Source of the DNA: Minisyncoccia bacterium
GTDB lineage: Bacteria; Patescibacteriota; Minisyncoccia; Phycocordibacterales; UBA918
NCBI GenBank assembly: GCA_046293175.1
Contig: JBKBPM010000002.1
Location: forward strand, 83,176 to 147,175
DNA length: 64,000 nucleotides
Direction of reading: 5' to 3'
The number at the start of each line of letters is the position of its first letter. Position 1 is the first letter of the stretch. The position numbers and the translations under genes were made by a program. The notes beneath the pieces are model-generated. The model saw nothing but the letters and a program-made list of their open reading frames with translations, did not search any database and was not told the DNA's origin. Positions 14,062 to 56,652 of this stretch are shown one piece after another.

Positions 14062-14499
14062 ATGAATCCAACAACTAACAATCAACCAGTCAACGAGCCA
14101 AACTTCGAAGGTGAGGAGATGAAAATCCCTCCTTCAATGAAGGCAGTTACCCCTGAACAGAACAACACATCTTTAGTTAGCGGCCCAATTTTGATTTTAC
14201 TCTTTGCGATTTTACTCGCGCTCCTTGGTGGTATCTATTACTGGTACACCATTCTCATGAGTGAGCCGATTGCAATCCCCGCCACCAGACCAACGGCCGA
14301 AATGAACAATGAACCCGAGAGTACCACGGCTGAAGCTCGTACTAGTGCCACCGATGTCGTGAGTACTTCAGACGAACTTGATGCTATCCAAGCCGATATC
14401 GAAAGTACTCGGTTTGATGATATTGATGATGGTTTCACTGCCGTCGAAAATGAACTGGGTGGCGCCCTTGAAGCAACCGACACCCAACCCGCACAATAA
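14062..14499 (+). CDS. Hypothetical single-pass membrane protein, acidic C-terminus
   Basis: 145 aa, TM helix ILILLFAILLALLGGIYYWY, ends directly before the terminator. Confidence 0.45.
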   Translation: MNPTTNNQPVNEPNFEGEEMKIPPSMKAVTPEQNNTSLVSGPILILLFAILLALLGGIYYWYTILMSEPIAIPATRPTAEMNNEPESTTAEARTSATDVVSTSDELDAIQADIESTRFDDIDDGFTAVENELGGALEATDTQPAQ

Positions 14500-14511
14500 G
14501 ATCTCGAAGAC

Positions 14512-14549
14512 CAAACCGCGACAGCCCCAGCTGCCGCGGTTGTCTTTTA
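14512..14549 (+). terminator. Rho-independent terminator
   Basis: aaccgcgacagc-cccagctgccgcggtt followed by gtctttt. Confidence 0.55.
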
Positions 14550-14575
14550 CCTCCTCTTATTCTACAATCAAGACT

Positions 14576-14800
14576 GTAGCCCCCTGAGGCTACGCCAATG
14601 AGGGAGACGCCTATGCTGGGTCACGTCGCTTTCGCCGCCGGTCACTGAGCGCGGCCGTCCGCTCGCCAACACCGGCATCCCCCGTCGCGAGCACCCCAAA
14701 GCTCCGACTAATTTTCCTCTAACCGAGAGACCTCCTTATGCCAGCGGCATGACAGGGTCTCTCACCCAACCCACTGTGTCCAATCTGGATGCAGTTTTTT
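14576..14800 (+). ncRNA. Candidate GC-rich structured small RNA of about 225 nt, with its own promoter (TTGTCT-N18-TACAAT at 14540-14569) and terminator (14773-14800); identity unknown
   Basis: No ORF of 60 aa or more in any frame. Local GC is about 62-65% (68% across the 14.61-14.70 kb core) against a 49% background. Nested hairpins (gagagacc..ggtctctc; atgcc-agc-ggcat; gctcgc..gcgagc). It ends in the hairpin ctgtgtcca-atc-tggatgcag followed by tttttt. Confidence 0.35.
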
Positions 14801-14864
14801 ATTTGCAATAACACATTTTCACCAGCTTGCTTTTTGGCCTAAGACGGGTACACTAGCGCGTACT

Positions 14865-15998
14865 ATGGCACACACACATCACCATCATAATATTGATTTT
14901 AAAAAGGCTTTTACCGTGACCACCGAAGCTGGTAGTCAGGTCACTATTGCGGGCGAAATCCCCTGGGAAGAGCTGGTCGCTGAACGCAGTGAAGCGATTA
15001 AAAAGCTTGGTGCAAACGTTGTTATCGACGGCTTTCGCCCTGGCCACGTACCTGAAGCCATGCTCGTAAAGCGTATTGGTGAAATGAATATTCTCATGGA
15101 AATGGCCGAACGTGTCATTGCCCACATGTACCCACATATCGTCGAAGCACACAAGCTTGAGGTTATTGGCTACCCAAAGATTGATATTACAAAAATTGCT
15201 CCGGAGAACCCACTTGGTTTTACCGCCACTGTCGCTGTCCTCCCGGCCATCACCCTCCCGGATTACCACTCAATTGCCAAGGAAGCAAATAGTAAAAAAG
15301 AATCAGCCGACGTAACTGACGCTGATGTCGACAAGCAGATCGAGGACATCCTTCGCCAAAAAGCCGCCTACGAACGACTCCAAGCTAAAGCGGTAGCGAA
15401 GGCCGACGGTGACCTCCCGACTCCAGAGACAGTTGACCCAATTGAAACTGAAGAAGACCTCAAGAAGCTCCCGATTCCAGAACTCACCGACGAAGTAGTC
15501 GCCGGACTTGGACAACCAGGTCAATTCACCAGTGTCGCAGACTTCAAGGCCAAGGTTCGTGAACATCTCGAAATTGAAAAGAAGCGTGAGGTCGAAGCGA
15601 AGCATCGTGCTCTCATCACCGACACCATCATTGCTGGTACTGAGATGGAACTGCCAGCAGTCCTCCTCGAAAGCGAAATCAATCAGATGTTTGCCCAGAT
15701 GAGTGAAGACCTCGAGCGAGCCAATCTCAACATGGACGATTACCTGGCTCATATCAAGAAGACCAAAGAAGATCTGAAGGCCGAGTGGACTCCAGCGGCC
15801 GAAAAGCGGGCGAAGCTCCAACTGGTGCTGAACGAAATCGCCAAAAAAGAAAACATCACGCCAGACAAGGATCAACTCAAGAGTCAGGTGGACCAGCTTG
15901 CCGCCCAGTATAAAGAGGCTGACCCACACCGCATTGCCGTGTATGTAGCGTCTATTATGCAGAATGAGGCTGTAATGAAAATGTTAGAGAACGTCTAA
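14865..15998 (+). CDS. tig: Trigger factor (short form, 377 aa)
   Basis: N-terminal ribosome-binding motif IDGFRPGHVPEAMLVKRIG, and the conserved tig-clpP synteny. Confidence 0.8.
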   Translation: MAHTHHHHNIDFKKAFTVTTEAGSQVTIAGEIPWEELVAERSEAIKKLGANVVIDGFRPGHVPEAMLVKRIGEMNILMEMAERVIAHMYPHIVEAHKLEVIGYPKIDITKIAPENPLGFTATVAVLPAITLPDYHSIAKEANSKKESADVTDADVDKQIEDILRQKAAYERLQAKAVAKADGDLPTPETVDPIETEEDLKKLPIPELTDEVVAGLGQPGQFTSVADFKAKVREHLEIEKKREVEAKHRALITDTIIAGTEMELPAVLLESEINQMFAQMSEDLERANLNMDDYLAHIKKTKEDLKAEWTPAAEKRAKLQLVLNEIAKKENITPDKDQLKSQVDQLAAQYKEADPHRIAVYVASIMQNEAVMKMLENV

Positions 15999-16011
15999 AA
16001 GCAACCAATCT

Positions 16012-16078
16012 ACTTTGTTAAAAATAAAAATAGGCCCTCAAAGTACACCTCGTACATCTCGGGCTTATTTTTATTTTT
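16012..16078. terminator. Long hairpin / bidirectional terminator after tig
   Basis: aaaaataaaaataggccc ... gggcttatttttattttt forms an approximately 18-bp stem with an inner hairpin gtacacctcgtac. Confidence 0.55.
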
Positions 16079-16626
16079 GCCTTGTATCTCGGTCACTTTT
16101 AGACGTCCTTGTACATCGTTATAAACTGCGAAAATGAGTAACTCTCCACTCGTAGCAAAGGCCCCAAGCGGGGCCTTTCTGCGTTCAAAATGCGAGCATA
16201 AACCAGATAATACCGAGCAGTATCCACCCCCAGAAGAGCGCTGACACCAGTTCACTTTCACTACAGATAATCAAGAATCGCTCAGTAACACCAGCCCGCA
16301 CATACTGCACATTACCGCGCTGTGTCCACCATATTTCATGATGAAGACTGCAGTGATACACCATGACATTCCCTACCATAAGCTGGCAAAGGATTAGAAA
16401 TACAATCATCAGTTTTCCTCCGCTATCTGGCTGATAGTATACCAAGTAGTCAAAATTAGGCAATGAATGAGCCGGTGTCGCATAAGGGGGAGTGAAGCCG
16501 ATTTTGGTCGGACACTCTTTGAAGTAGTCGTAGCGAATTAGCGCTAGTGCCTGACACCATAACGAGATTCCAGGTGCATAAAAAGTGCCAAGCTAGCGTC
16601 TATGGGCTTCGCAAAAATTCCTCCAG

Positions 16627-16668
16627 GAAGAGAGCGATTGCTTCGGTGCCGCTCTTTCTTATTTCCCT
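16627..16668 (+). terminator. Rho-independent terminator or attenuator about 40 nt upstream of clpP
   Basis: gaagagagcg-attgcttcggtgc-cgctctttc followed by ttatttccc. Confidence 0.5.
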
Positions 16669-16702
16669 ACCTTTTGCTAGGATGTGAGAGCGCAGCCAGT
16701 TA

Positions 16703-19539: not shown

Positions 19540-20109
19540 TTATTTGTCGATTGATTCAGCCACCAAAAAGGTAGTTTTGTTTATTTGCGCGTCTTGAATT
19601 GATGATGCGAGTATAGAAAGTCCATAGACATCTCCCGCACGACGAGACGCAATCACGGCGGTGGTTTTTGACAGCACGCCACTTGCGAGATCAGCTGCCG
19701 CCGCTGCCGTGTCTTTGTACGGCATTACCTCAGCTTCTATCCATTCTCGCTCGAGATATCCCCGACATTGCTTGAGGGCCTGATCGTGAGAAACGATAGT
19801 CGTCACCATATCTTTAGTAACGCCCTCTGCCACCAAGAGCATATGATGAATATCAATAGCAAAAATTGTTTCAATTACACATTGGTATTTAGCGAGTGCA
19901 TGCATCGCTTCGATGACGAGCCCGCCGTTATTATTCATCACCGGAAATATGGCTTTATCAATAGCTTTTTCGGCTAGTGCACCAAGTACGGCGTCGGCGG
20001 TCACGAGTGGCACAATCGTACTATCGAACAACCCTTCCTGATTACGATAATGCTCTCCGGCCTGTTCCGAAAAGCTCCCCACCGCTCCCATGACACCAAT
20101 TTTTATCAT
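19540..20109 (-). CDS. pheA: Prephenate dehydratase domain protein (lacks an ACT regulatory domain)
   Basis: IGVMGAVGSFSEQA N-terminus and the VSHDQALKQC signature (compare SHPQALAQC); 189 aa. Confidence 0.7.
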   Translation of the reverse strand: MIKIGVMGAVGSFSEQAGEHYRNQEGLFDSTIVPLVTADAVLGALAEKAIDKAIFPVMNNNGGLVIEAMHALAKYQCVIETIFAIDIHHMLLVAEGVTKDMVTTIVSHDQALKQCRGYLEREWIEAEVMPYKDTAAAAADLASGVLSKTTAVIASRRAGDVYGLSILASSIQDAQINKTTFLVAESIDK

Positions 20110-30904: not shown

Positions 30905-31262
30905 CATTGGGTATTTTATTTCGTTCCTCATAAAATATCTCATTCGCCCGACCCGGACTGTTCCGGCCCTAAAGGGAACCCCGGAACAGTCTTTCGAGTC
31001 CCTCCGGGGGCGACATGGACTCGGTCACGCTCATGGATATTTTATTTCGTTCCTCATAAAATATCTCATTCGCCCGACCCGGACTGTTCCGGCCCTAAAG
31101 GGAACCCCGGAACAGTCTTTCGAGTCCCTCCGGGGGCGACATGGACTCGGTCACGCTCATGGATATTTTATTTCGTTCCTCATAAAATATCTCATTCGCC
31201 CGACCCGGACTGTTCCGGCCCTAAAGGGAACCCCGGAACAGTCTTTCGAGTCCCTCCGGGGG
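30905..31262. repeat. 126-bp tandem repeat, about 2.8 near-identical copies, each carrying a plus-orientation pseudo-copy of the tRNA-Arg 3' half
   Basis: Unit ggatattttatttcgttcctcataaaatatctcattcgcccgacccggactgttccggccctaaagggaaccccggaacagtctttcgagtccctccgggggcgacatggactcggtcacgctcat; copies start at 30909, 31035 and 31161. Confidence 0.85.
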
Positions 31263-31264
31263 CG

Positions 31265-31311
31265 ACAAACGGCAACGGCCCAAATGCTTGCGCATTTGGG
31301 CCGGCCGTTTG
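31265..31311. terminator. Hairpin terminator downstream of tRNA-Arg, same scaffold as at 22322-22369
   Basis: acaaacggcaacggcccaaatgc-ttgc-gcatttgggccggccgtttgt. Together with 31245-31260 and 31316-31331 it forms an inverted repeat of about 40 bp per arm. Confidence 0.6.
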
Positions 31312-31383
31312 TGCACCCGGAGGGACTCGAACCCCCGACGACTGTTCCGAAGACAGTAATGATATCCACTTCACCACGGGTGC
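31312..31383 (-). tRNA. tRNA-Arg (anticodon TCG), no encoded CCA
   Basis: Revcomp gcacccgtggtgaagtggatatcattactgtCTTCGGAacagtcgtcgggggttcgagtccctccgggtgca. Confidence 0.75.
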
Positions 31384-54324: not shown

Positions 54325-56652
54325 ATGTTGGAGGGAATGGTCCCGTGTTTCAGACGTGCGCTTGTGGTCGCGCTCATTCTCTGTGCCTTTTTTGTAACTA
54401 TACAATATGCACAAGCACAAGCAGTTACCCCCTCGCCAGTTGATGGGGAGGGAGGAGGGCTTAGTGGCGGTGGAGGTGGTGGAAGTATTCCAATCACTGG
54501 AGGACCATTTAATGGTCCTGGACCTGTCCCAAATGGTTCGATTAACCCGGTGACCGGCGCACCCATTAGTGGCAATGGTGCTAGTGGGGGAGGTGGAAAT
54601 GATGCTGGTGGATTTAATAATCCCGGGCAACAAACTACCCAAACCGTGGAAACTCCACCTATTATCGTCCAAGACGGCGCTAGTTGTTGGAGTTCACCAC
54701 AAGGTTTTTTCCACTGTATTGCCACAGCCTTTTTTGGAACATTTGTCGCTATTGCAGGTTATGCCTTTGATTGGTCAATTCAATTATTTATTACCCAGTT
54801 TGGGCAGATGTACCTTACCTACGGTGTCGGGGCAGTAGTTGAGGGAACTTGGGGTACGGTCCGTGATATCTTCAACCTAACCTTTATCTTTGGGCTCGTT
54901 TATATCGGATTCCAAATTATTCTTGGCGTAAACGAAAGTAGTGCTAAGCGCACCATTCCACTTCTCATTGTAGCCGCACTGCTCGTCAACTTCAGTCTTT
55001 TTATTGTGAAGTTTGTAGTTGATTTTGCCAACTTGGCTGCACTTCAAATTTATAACCTCTTTAGCGCTGCTAACACCCTCAATGCTGGTGGTGGACAAGC
55101 AAGTCCAGGCACCATTGTGGACATTTTAGGTGGTGATACACCGAGTATTGCTCTTGCATTTATCAATACTATAGGAGTCACCAGTCTTCTTAGTCATAAC
55201 CCAAGTGCCGGAGTGGCCGATGGCGTACCTCTCTTCTACACCTTTGGGATGATTGTGGTCTTTTTGGTCCTTATCTACGTATTTTTTGCGGCAGCTATCC
55301 TTATTACCATCCGCTTTGCGGCCCTGACGTTCTACATGATCTTTTCACCCATCATGTTCCTGGGGTGGGTCTTCCCGGGTATGAAGTCCTACAGTGACAA
55401 GTTCTGGAGCGGTCTTTTTGGACAAGCGTTTTTTGCTCCGGCCCTCCTTTTCATGTTGTATATCACATACCAACTCTCGGCTGGTTTGGCGGGTCCAAAT
55501 CGCGTTGACGGACGAGTATTCGAAAACCAAGCCAACGCCCTTGGCTTTGCCCAGTTCATTCCGTACCTAGTTCTCATTGTTGTCTTCCTCATGGCCTCAC
55601 TTATCGTCGCCAAAAAGATGGCGAACCAAGGTGCCAGTATGGTAGGGAAGGTCAATGACTGGGCAGTCAGCAAGGCTGGACTGGCCGCCGGTGGTATGAC
55701 TGCTGGACTTATGGCCCGAGCGGGACGAAATACTATCGGGGCTGCAGCCTACGGGATACAAAATAGTGAAGGTTTTAAAGAATTTGCAGCACGCAATGGT
55801 AGATTTGGTAAAATGATGTATTCCGGAGTTGGTAAAGTAGCTGACAGTAGCTTTGATGCGAGGAAAGTCGGTGGTGCTGGTAAATTAATGGGTGTTGGTG
55901 AGGGACGTAAAGGGGGAATTGCTACCATCACCAAGGACAACAAGGAATCTGATGAAAAATTTCTTAAAGCCATCGGTACGCGGGAGTGGACTAAGGGTAA
56001 GTTTGAGGATAGCGATGAAGGCATTAGGTTAAAATCAAACATTACGGCCATCGAACAAAGTATGGCAGGTGTTACAGACCAACAGAAACTTGACCAGATG
56101 AAAAGCGAACTGGTGGCCGCTACAAAAGCGTACGTTGCTGGTAGCAAAAAATGGGATTCAGAGGAATCACAACACATATATGGTCGTCAGCTTAGCTATA
56201 TTGAAAATATGGAACGCTGGCAAAAAGTCTATGGTGCTACTGCAAAAGCAGCTGGTGTAGCTAGTGCTGGTATTATTGCTGGTGTAGCCACTGGTGGATT
56301 AGGTTGGGCAGCAGCTGCTGGTGCTGGTGTAGCCGCTGGAGGCAGCACCTATGCAGCAGGTAAAAGTACTTGGTATAAATCTCGAAATGAAGCGGCTGCA
56401 CTTCGTAAAGATTATGGTGCTGATGGAAGTAAGAAGAAGAAAGCTGATCAAAAGAAAAAGGCTCAAGAAGAAGCTGCCGCAGCCCTTGGGCTTAAAAAGG
56501 AAGAAGAAGATCATGGTAAAAAAGATAAGGTGAAGGAGGATCATGGTAAAAAAGATGATCATCACTCAACACCTAAAGCAGCTGCTTCAGCACCAAAAGC
56601 GGCACCAAGTGGTGGTGGAGGCGGTCATAATAATCATGGTGGTGGCCATTAA
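54325..56652 (+). CDS. VirB6/TrbL-like polytopic T4SS membrane protein (putative)
   Basis: Signal peptide, Gly-rich linker, six or more TM helices, lysine-rich low-complexity C-terminal tail; sits next to the PrgI-like and VirB4 genes. Confidence 0.45.
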   Translation: MLEGMVPCFRRALVVALILCAFFVTIQYAQAQAVTPSPVDGEGGGLSGGGGGGSIPITGGPFNGPGPVPNGSINPVTGAPISGNGASGGGGNDAGGFNNPGQQTTQTVETPPIIVQDGASCWSSPQGFFHCIATAFFGTFVAIAGYAFDWSIQLFITQFGQMYLTYGVGAVVEGTWGTVRDIFNLTFIFGLVYIGFQIILGVNESSAKRTIPLLIVAALLVNFSLFIVKFVVDFANLAALQIYNLFSAANTLNAGGGQASPGTIVDILGGDTPSIALAFINTIGVTSLLSHNPSAGVADGVPLFYTFGMIVVFLVLIYVFFAAAILITIRFAALTFYMIFSPIMFLGWVFPGMKSYSDKFWSGLFGQAFFAPALLFMLYITYQLSAGLAGPNRVDGRVFENQANALGFAQFIPYLVLIVVFLMASLIVAKKMANQGASMVGKVNDWAVSKAGLAAGGMTAGLMARAGRNTIGAAAYGIQNSEGFKEFAARNGRFGKMMYSGVGKVADSSFDARKVGGAGKLMGVGEGRKGGIATITKDNKESDEKFLKAIGTREWTKGKFEDSDEGIRLKSNITAIEQSMAGVTDQQKLDQMKSELVAATKAYVAGSKKWDSEESQHIYGRQLSYIENMERWQKVYGATAKAAGVASAGIIAGVATGGLGWAAAAGAGVAAGGSTYAAGKSTWYKSRNEAAALRKDYGADGSKKKKADQKKKAQEEAAAALGLKKEEEDHGKKDKVKEDHGKKDDHHSTPKAAASAPKAAPSGGGGGHNNHGGGH

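Follow-up and report, generated by a model that had tools for sequence, protein, structure and literature searches.

Between a hypothetical gene and tig, the genome of the Minisyncoccia bacterium represented by contig JBKBPM010000002.1 carries an unannotated element of about 225 nt, and the question it raises is whether this is a non-coding RNA, the leader of the gene that follows, or a gene of its own. The stretch of DNA analysed, 64,000 nt long and called the window below, holds the element at positions 14540-14800, where a promoter-like site, a 5' hairpin, a Shine-Dalgarno (SD) sequence with an 11-codon open reading frame (ORF), three more hairpins and an intrinsic terminator follow one another. 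An initial annotation of this DNA had described a candidate structured small RNA (sRNA), perhaps 6S-like or an attenuator leader, and had taken the 11-codon frame for an upstream ORF (uORF). Comparison with related genomes leads us to a different reading: with a probability of roughly 0.6, the element would be a lineage-specific, independently transcribed and structured small mRNA, possibly a dual-function sRNA, which encodes a Gly-His micropeptide.

Results

A candidate coding frame shared by all homologues

Homologues were retrieved as the interval between the hypothetical gene and tig in related assemblies, with tig and the upstream 145-aa protein as anchors. The relatives found via tig were all Patescibacteria metagenome-assembled genomes, labelled Paceibacteria, Parcubacteria, Kaiserbacteria or Nomurabacteria, and are designated here by locus handles. 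Eleven distinct copies of the element were obtained (window, L062, L059/61, L060, L001, L002, which is the same as L058, L066-71, L072/73, L075, L079 and L005). All sit between the same two genes, in an intergenic region of 314-392 nt where measured. Their 3' half is of type A in the window, L062, L066-71, L072, L075 and L079, and of type B, different in sequence and equally conserved, in L001, L002 and L059-61; L005 has a third, shorter 3' region.

A single ORF, hereafter the small ORF (sORF), is common to all homologues, and in every one of them an SD core (GGAG, GGGAG or GGAGG) lies 6-9 nt before its ATG. Both features of the window copy had been recognised in the initial annotation:

14600-14606, + strand: SD sequence GAGGGAG, 6 nt before the ATG
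14613-14648, + strand: sORF of 11 codons plus TGA (14646-14648), product MLGHVAFAAGH

Seven alleles were found, namely MLGHVAFAAGH, MLGHVAYTAGH, MMGHHPFTTGH, MSKSGHGHEAGH, MLGHGHEAGH, MNGHGHEAGH and MNGHGHSAGH. All seven retain the SD, the ATG, the frame and the GH-TGA ending, and their lengths of 10, 11 or 12 codons differ by whole codons. Within the group of GHGH alleles, all six single-base differences fall at third positions of Gly, His and Ala codons (GGT/GGA/GGG/GGC, CAC/CAT and GCC/GCT). The proportion of synonymous differences (pS) in this group is 0.79-0.97 and that of non-synonymous differences (pN) 0.14, giving a pN/pS of about 0.15, and by our own count six of the seven inferred events are synonymous (binomial P = 0.0013, to be taken as indicative).

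Across six close relatives, no segment varies less than the sORF, with a mean identity of 0.96 versus 0.66 for the first hairpin (HP1) and 0.70 for the second (HP2); its four variable columns all stem from L002. Four-fold degenerate sites of the flanking genes gave the neutral level, with identities of 0.36-0.61 between the window and L001, and of 0.41-0.48 between the window and L002. The 5' module is 79-83% identical between the window and these two loci, and the type-A 3' domain can be aligned even to relatives in which the four-fold sites of tig are saturated. Measured against such sites, the comparison shows conservation of the element above the neutral level.

Past the TGA, indels are not multiples of three and the frames are inconsistent: L002 has a 2-nt deletion and a 1-nt insertion, and the frame through the third hairpin (HP3) differs between L066 and the window. 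The reading frame thus ends at the TGA, which excludes read-through as well as recoding of the UGA to selenocysteine, and a bacterial selenocysteine insertion element was rejected on the same ground. Two other ways of reading the segment were discarded. An in-frame ATG further upstream (MRETPMLGH...) lies inside the SD and is missing from L059, and the direct GGTCAC repeats, considered as a protein-binding site on DNA, lost their appeal once GGC/GGA/GGG and CAT variants appeared. A regular-expression search found no other sORF of the GH type. As judged from its substitutions, the sORF is the most constrained segment of the element and has the pattern of a protein-coding sequence, rather than being an incidental uORF.

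RNA structure

On the + strand, the element folds at -89.8 kcal/mol (z = -4.7), a value that none of 200 shuffles equalled, and the fold of the - strand is weaker (z = -2.9). In minimum free energy (MFE) and consensus folds, five or six distinct hairpins stand in a row, and one short helix joins remote parts of the RNA. The parts preceding the terminator are, in the window copy:

14575-14594, + strand: HP1, a hairpin of 7 bp that would stand at the 5' end of the transcript
14637-14676, + strand: HP2, with outer stem GCCGGU/ACCGGC and inner stem GAGCG/CGCUC, beginning at the GA of the UGA
14684-14708, + strand: HP3, an 8-bp bulged hairpin whose apical loop, ACCCCAAA (14693-14700), is C-rich and conserved
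14709-14724, + strand: single-stranded CU-rich linker UAAUUUUCCUCUAACC, in which UUCCUC (14714-14719) is the predicted partner of the SD (helix P2)
14725-14763, + strand: HP4, a 16-bp two-tier hairpin, GAGAGACCU..UUAUGCC-AGC-GGCAUGA..GGGUCUCUC, with a 2x2 internal loop

In HP1, 17 of 21 columns vary among close relatives and pairing is nonetheless retained, through stems such as GUAGCC/GGCUAC, CCGUC/GACGG, CGCAGUC/GAUUGCG and UGCACCC/GGGUGUA, among others; its G-U pairs are valid solely on the + strand. A likely role for this hairpin is to stabilise the 5' end. HP2 encloses the last two codons of the sORF and its stop codon. Its inner stem shows the compensatory variants GAGCG/CGCUC, GAGGC/GCCUC and GAGUC/GGCUC, and in L072, L075 and L079 the stretch GUCAYUGA(GC) finds a complementary partner further downstream. 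The 2-nt indel of L002 and the inconsistent frames in L066 imply that the stretch covered by HP2 is non-coding.

In the 3' domain, over six sequences of type A, 89% of the cells of the alignment pair, as against 30-43% when partners are slid, both sides change in 13 pairs, and none of 500 shuffles reaches the covariation score. In HP3 (helix 1), double changes from G-C to A-U and from A-U to G-C occur in the stem, and the sequence of the loop is kept. In HP4 (helix 2), 99% of the cells are paired, with changes on both sides in 7 of 16 pairs, when slid controls reach about 40%. Some 21 G-U cells of the type-A domain would be A-C mismatches on the - strand. The RNA structure is real, and it is that of the + strand.

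Covariation in homologous intergenic regions was one of the checks that the initial annotation had proposed. Of the stems it listed, gagagacc/ggtctctc and atgcc-agc-ggcat turned out to be the two tiers of a single hairpin, HP4, whereas gctcgc/gcgagc found no support, GCGAGC being part of a different hairpin, HP3, which covaries. A 'CCUCC' inside HP4 was considered as a free anti-SD and rejected, as it is mostly base-paired.

The long-range helix concerns translation. The MFE folds of seven of nine homologues pair the SD with the CU-rich linker, some 100 nt further downstream, which in the window amounts to pairing of GAGGGAG with UUCCUC at 14714-14719, and the RNAalifold consensus of a codon-aware alignment recovers this helix, P2. 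The computed probability that the SD is unpaired ranges from 0.11 to 0.45 across copies (0.19 in the window copy), and that of the AUG from 0.70 to 1.00. Masking of the SD by the downstream CU-rich stretch is therefore predicted by the folding model.

Putative signals for transcription and comparison with RNA families

Two further features bound the predicted transcript:

14540-14568, + strand: promoter-like site, -35 box TTGTCT (14540-14545), 17-nt spacer, -10 box TACAAT (14563-14568)
14773-14800, + strand: intrinsic terminator, a 10-bp stem with two G-U pairs and a 3-nt loop (hairpin 14773-14795), then a T-run to 14800

The initial annotation had the two promoter boxes right and the spacer one nucleotide too long, at 18; the terminator is where it had been placed. 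The layout TTGnnn-N17-TA(C/G)A(A/C)T is retained, with diverged spacers, in L062, L066, L072, L075, L079, L001, L002 and L059, and L005 has TTGCAC and TATGCT at about the same spacing. Mean pairwise identity of the promoter segment is 0.91 in the close group. The terminator hairpin (helix 3) covaries among relatives, L066 having a version with perfect pairs, ACUGCAUCC/GGAUGCAGU. Conserved promoter layout, covarying terminator and strand-specific G-U pairs would suit an independent transcription unit, and the element, as it had first been described, has the look of a self-contained unit equipped with a promoter and a terminator.

The element corresponds to no known family. Searched against Rfam 15 at the gathering thresholds, the whole window gave four tRNAs only. 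At E<=10, region 14400-14950 gave nothing in the element and one chance match to a snoRNA outside it, and at E<=1 six relatives gave nothing at the element. Neither ARAGORN nor Rfam found a transfer-messenger RNA (tmRNA) in the window, and ARAGORN placed no tRNA at the element either. A tmRNA identity was ruled out, the ORF having an SD and an AUG and the element no tmRNA match. In the literature, we found no described sRNA, regulatory RNA or micropeptide for Patescibacteria or the candidate phyla radiation (CPR), and nothing relevant on His-rich leader peptides.

Distribution and modularity

A clean empty site was found in eight lineages (L003, L004, L063-65, L074, L076-78, L080/81, L082/83 and L084/85). 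There, the same putative tig promoter comes within about 10-40 nt after the terminator of the upstream gene, in an intergenic region of about 100-110 nt. A tree of tig places L063, which lacks the element, inside a group of genomes that carry it, and presence is patchy overall. Neither the sORF nor the RNA domain occurs at the more distant tig loci (L006-L055). The gene is restricted to one narrow Patescibacteria clade, of Paceibacteria/Parcubacteria-like genomes.

The two types of 3' half share one topology, with a hairpin, a CU-rich linker, a long hairpin and a terminator. As the same sORF is found with different types of 3' domain, the sORF appears as the constant part and the RNA 3' domain as an exchangeable module. 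A chimera illustrates this: L060 is identical to L062 from the end of the upstream gene through HP1, and to L059 in HP2 and the 3' domain, which shows recombination within the population, with a crossover in the invariant sORF.

In L005, positions 2284-2770 hold a unit of about 101 nt (-10 box, SD, MMGHHPFTTGH and hairpin) in tandem, with at least two full copies and part of a third, arranged about a gap of some 99 N. This is either a real array of micropeptide cistrons or a collapse of repeats during assembly.

Copies elsewhere were searched for in several ways. BLAST of the region against the 64 kb window found no second copy, and a search of 478 kb with a covariance model for the type-A 3' domain recovered the known copies only; two weak matches in L038 proved to be ordinary terminators. 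A pattern scan of metagenomes, limited to the 11-codon allele type and thus blind to GHGH alleles, returned one true match, L058, and scans of viral contigs returned none. The sole other metagenome match, L057 2993-3028 (MAGHILFCAGH), was judged to be due to chance, being AT-rich and eukaryote-like, with neither SD nor hairpins.

Locus and neighbourhood

The element lies in a neighbourhood of nusA, a DHH/DHHA2 phosphoesterase gene, two hypothetical genes, tig, clpP, the gene for RNase Y, and genes for type IV pili or type II secretion. The gene directly upstream encodes a hypothetical membrane protein of 145 aa and ends at 14499. Two features of the neighbouring genes mark the borders of the element:

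14516-14548, + strand: intrinsic terminator of the upstream gene, stem 14516-14525/14530-14539, then TTGTCTTTT
14827-14867, + strand: putative promoter of tig, TTGCTT, 16 nt, TACACT, with its end 10 nt ahead of the start codon of tig (ATG, 14865)

The first is the left boundary and its T-tract overlaps the -35 box of the element; it is kept in relatives both with and without the element. The second is the right boundary. It is near-identical in all relatives, element-less ones included; the distance from the terminator of the element to its -35 box varies from about 8 to 45 nt.

As had been noted at first, the region is GC-rich and holds no ORF of 60 aa or more. The highest GC content over 100 nt of the entire 64 kb falls in the element, about 4 standard deviations over the mean, with a background that is 0.47 and not 0.49 as then given. 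GC is 0.61 for 14576-14800, 0.64 for 14576-14772 and 0.71 for 14600-14699, and 14576-14800 ranks 13th of 12,755 windows of its size, those ranked higher appearing to overlap the same locus. A negative GC skew makes the RNA markedly C-rich. A 69-aa ORF called mechanically ends at 14587 and a 43-aa ORF on the - strand spans 14568-14699; neither is kept in relatives, and the latter was rejected as a gene for this reason. The second GC-richest 100-nt spot of the window, at 31241-31350, adjoins and overlaps a tRNA-Arg gene (31311-31383, - strand), which probably explains it.

On the side of tig, the mRNA appears, from its sequence, to be of the leaderless type, with no SD, at 14827-14890 of the window as at all other tig loci, for instance L003 2960-3020 and L063 2800-2870. 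Its products begin with a His-rich stretch encoded by CA-rich DNA: MAHTHHHH for the window, MSHSHSHHHH for L066 and MTHEHHHH for L005. A CA-rich element that enhances translation from downstream of the start may have brought about this His run as a side effect. The trigger factor of the window (14865-15998) has 377 aa, with Trigger_N and Trigger_C and no FKBP/PPIase domain. Public calls of this gene are extended at the 5' end in several relatives: L059 3141-4460 (439 aa), L066 3233-4450 (405 aa), L069 (404 aa), L072 1563-2747 (394 aa) and L063 2807-3982 (391 aa), for a true length of about 377 aa. The calls of 394-439 aa, those of L059, L066, L069 and L072, run into the element, and the call of L063 only into the short intergenic region. 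These extended calls are annotation artefacts.

Other observations concern the rest of the window. The gap of about 700 nt between tig and clpP (15999-16702) has no long ORF, and an 83-aa ORF on the minus strand (16010-16261) matches gene calls of 82-87 aa in L059 (4480-4728), L074 (3932-4180) and L075 (4076-4336). At 54325-56652 is encoded a multi-pass membrane protein of 775 aa with a Gly-rich N-terminal region and no Pfam match; its charged C-terminal tail, ...EDHGKKDDHH...GGGGGHNNHGGGH, also ends in Gly-His, probably by coincidence. A stand-alone protein with a prephenate dehydratase (PDT) domain is encoded at 19540-20109. Genomes of this type are usually without amino-acid biosynthesis.

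Discussion

Taken together, the conserved signals suggest the following mode of action. A sigma-70-type promoter would fire about 7 nt before a protective 5' hairpin, and transcription would stop at the intrinsic terminator about 225 nt further on. The product is a compact multi-hairpin RNA, as covariation shows. At its core lies an ORF of 10-12 codons with consensus M-x-G-H-...-[A/T]-G-H, which the substitution pattern shows to be under purifying selection for its amino acids and not for its nucleotides alone, and which is presumably translated. Initiation would probably be throttled, with a predicted pairing of the SD to the CU-rich linker some 100 nt further on and the AUG in a small loop, and the last codons and the UGA are predicted to be clamped in HP2. 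The 3' domain, made of HP3, the CU-rich linker, HP4 and the terminator, is conserved and exists in two interchangeable versions, and therefore probably does more than terminate transcription. It may control the stability or translation of the sORF, or it may work in trans, as a C-rich sRNA that pairs with targets, in which case the whole would be a dual-function RNA. As to the peptide, our best guess, made with low confidence and by analogy, is that it binds a divalent metal (Zn, Ni or Cu) via its X-Gly-His units. A fuller scheme, which we regard as doubtful, is that of a CPR riboregulatory module, of a new type, in which a decapeptide gene would have its SD masked by a distal anti-SD and would couple translation of the Gly-His frame, or metal binding by the HEXXH-like peptide, to the activity of one of two exchangeable 3' 'effector' domains.

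Several points weigh against a micropeptide gene. The sample consists of 11 distinct copies and 7 alleles related by descent, which makes the statistics indicative only. Predicted RNA pairing involves the first and last GH codons as well, the first GGUC with a GACC just ahead of the AUG in several copies and the last codons in HP2, so that some of their conservation could be at the RNA level. In keeping with this concern, the first GH is GGT CAC in seven of seven alleles, in a genome that otherwise uses CAC about as often as CAT. The middle of the peptide differs between alleles (VAFA versus GHE), pN is close to pS between the window and L005, and the window allele, MLGHVAFAAGH, has two His only. 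To our knowledge, there are few precedents for free functional products of 10-12 aa. Patchy presence implies that the gene is dispensable, no trans-acting target can be named, and promoter, terminator and translation are all inferred from sequence. Finally, helix P2 has no covariation support, because both of its sides are nearly invariant.

Two other explanations give the peptide itself no role. It could be that the sORF is translated and serves as a sensor, the progress of the ribosome at the Gly-His codons or at His-UGA next to HP2 reporting on the charging of His-tRNA or on a small molecule sensed by the nascent chain. Such progress would open P2 and HP2, and so free the CU-rich linker and the C-rich loop and alter the stability or the trans-activity of the RNA. 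We consider this unlikely. The embedding of the sORF in structure, with its SD paired to the linker, its AUG in a loop and its stop in HP2, would suit a sensor, as would the invariance of the His codons and of the GH-UGA ending next to a variable middle, and the conservation of the 3' RNA domains in their own right. However, a His-tRNA sensor would not need Gly to be kept across codons read by different tRNAs (GGT/GGC versus GGA/GGG). There are only two or three His codons, never consecutive and each preceded by Gly, no conserved alternative pairing tied to the position of the ribosome was found, and regulation of His biosynthesis is not expected in Patescibacteria. The element might instead be a purely non-coding sRNA acting in trans, whose C-rich loop ACCCCAAA and CU-rich linker would pair with G-rich ribosome-binding sites of targets in the manner of RsaE/RoxS, the SD and mini-ORF being only a 5' stabiliser that loads ribosomes, or fortuitous. 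Strongly covarying domains, conserved unpaired C-rich and CU-rich motifs and the overall C-richness of the RNA all speak for it, and two 3' domains could mean two sets of targets. Yet in a non-coding RNA, third-position changes, whole-codon indels and an ATG and TGA in seven of seven alleles are unexpected; the sORF is conserved beyond any hairpin and is the sole part common to all three types of 3' domain, L005 included, and neither RsaE nor any other sRNA family matches in Rfam. We consider this explanation quite improbable.

According to the attenuator hypothesis of the initial annotation, translation of a leader peptide would decide on read-through of the terminator at 14773-14800 into tig and clpP. 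The position directly upstream of tig on the same strand, the presence of a tiny ORF that contains His codons and precedes hairpins and a terminator, and even the His-rich start of tig, MAHTHHHH, would be in line with it. But the tig promoter-like region is conserved in all relatives and comes directly after the upstream terminator in the eight element-less lineages, and it stands at a variable distance from the terminator that is supposed to control the gene. Between the sORF and this terminator lie about 125 nt and two independent hairpins of high stability. For the 5' arm of the terminator no conserved competitor was found, the best duplexes being weaker than the terminator and inconsistent in position; no leader family of Rfam matches either. 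We consider the hypothesis very improbable. Just as remote is the idea of an accessory or conflict-type locus, either a module resembling type I toxin-antitoxin systems or the remnant of a small mobile insertion. It would account for the patchy distribution, with a clean empty site (L063) nested in an element-bearing clade, for the mosaic recombination of 5' and 3' modules in L060, for two alternative 3' alleles and the tandem amplification in L005, and the long-range masking of the SD recalls type I toxin mRNAs. Against it, the peptides are polar, Gly/His-rich and 10-12 aa long, with no hydrophobic segment and unlike a membrane toxin, and no promoter-like site for an antisense RNA was seen on the - strand within 14540-14800, where folding signal and G-U pairs favour the + strand. 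All copies of the element occupy one and the same chromosomal position, without terminal repeats, target-site duplication or mobility gene, and none was found beyond these in the window or in the 478 kb of related loci.

The small mRNA with its Gly-His micropeptide remains the reading we prefer, and we see in it a genuine, previously unannotated and lineage-restricted small gene of a known general kind, that of structured sRNAs bearing an sORF, with unusual features. Patescibacteria, or CPR bacteria, have tiny genomes and are uncultivated; here, comparative data alone define a complete small gene that annotation pipelines missed. The coding signature comes from a frame of no more than 10-12 codons, and the peptide, if it is made, is near the lower size limit for a selected gene product. 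Were the riboregulatory module true, the sORF would be among the smallest protein-coding genes under demonstrable purifying selection, and the element the first characterised dual-function RNA in Patescibacteria, as far as the literature was searched. Its predicted masked SD, its stop codon in a hairpin and its exchangeable 3' domains make it a tractable case of modular RNA evolution, presence and absence among near-identical genomes provide natural knock-outs for metagenomic association, and the Gly-His/HEAGH chemistry makes metal binding directly testable with a synthetic peptide. If this is merely a lineage-specific gene of minor effect, the practical value is limited to a correction of annotation and an RNA model for the clade.

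Comparison with known systems

The 6S-like identity suggested at first rested on features that the element does share with 6S RNA: about 200 nt, a GC-rich and structured RNA, its own promoter and terminator. It differs by a conserved coding frame and by a fold of several hairpins instead of a rod with a central bubble, it gave no match to RF00013 at E<=10, and eight sister lineages lack it at this locus, a test that covers the locus itself, a copy elsewhere in those genomes being possible. The 6S identity is not supported.

Like the his leader (RF00514), the element stands upstream of a gene on the same strand and has a very short ORF containing His codons, behind which come hairpins and a terminator. 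In contrast to that leader, it has no regulatory run of codons and no antiterminator/terminator alternative, selection acts on Gly too, and the gene downstream has its own conserved promoter-like region, unchanged in genomes without the element.

RsaE/RoxS (RF01820), which stands for the C-rich-motif sRNAs of Firmicutes, offers a parallel for the conserved unpaired regions, here a CCCC loop and a CCUCU linker that could base-pair with G-rich SD sequences, among compact hairpins and a terminator. The covariance model does not match, however, the element has a conserved ORF, and the obvious partner of its CU motif is its own SD. Type I toxin mRNAs (hok, tisB, aapA1, ibs) also combine a small ORF, a structured transcript, long-range masking of the SD (predicted here) and a patchy distribution, but our peptide is polar and too short for a membrane toxin, and the element is single-copy at a fixed locus.

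For the peptide, the likeness is to metal sites. Its alleles consist largely of X-Gly-His units, and three of them end in H-E-A-G-H, the active-site motif of FtsH, of the HEXXH type; X-Gly-His sites, like the amino-terminal Cu- and Ni-binding (ATCUN) motif, are metal-binding motifs. Unlike in ATCUN, the His is at position 4 from the N-terminus and not 3, and the window allele has no HEXXH. An origin of the sequence from the HEAGH motif of a nearby ftsH was rejected, since there is no ftsH in the window.

Among the closest systems are the dual-function sRNAs, such as SgrS/SgrT, RNAIII/delta-haemolysin, SR1/SR1P, Spot 42/SpfP and AzuCR/AzuC. Like them, the element would have an independent promoter and an intrinsic terminator around a structured RNA (about 200-500 nt) that carries a small ORF, and it has conserved unpaired motifs that could base-pair with targets. 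It matches none of them in Rfam, and what distinguishes it is its ORF of 10-12 aa, where theirs are of about 15-45 aa, its Patescibacteria host, and a 3' domain that exists in two interchangeable conserved versions.

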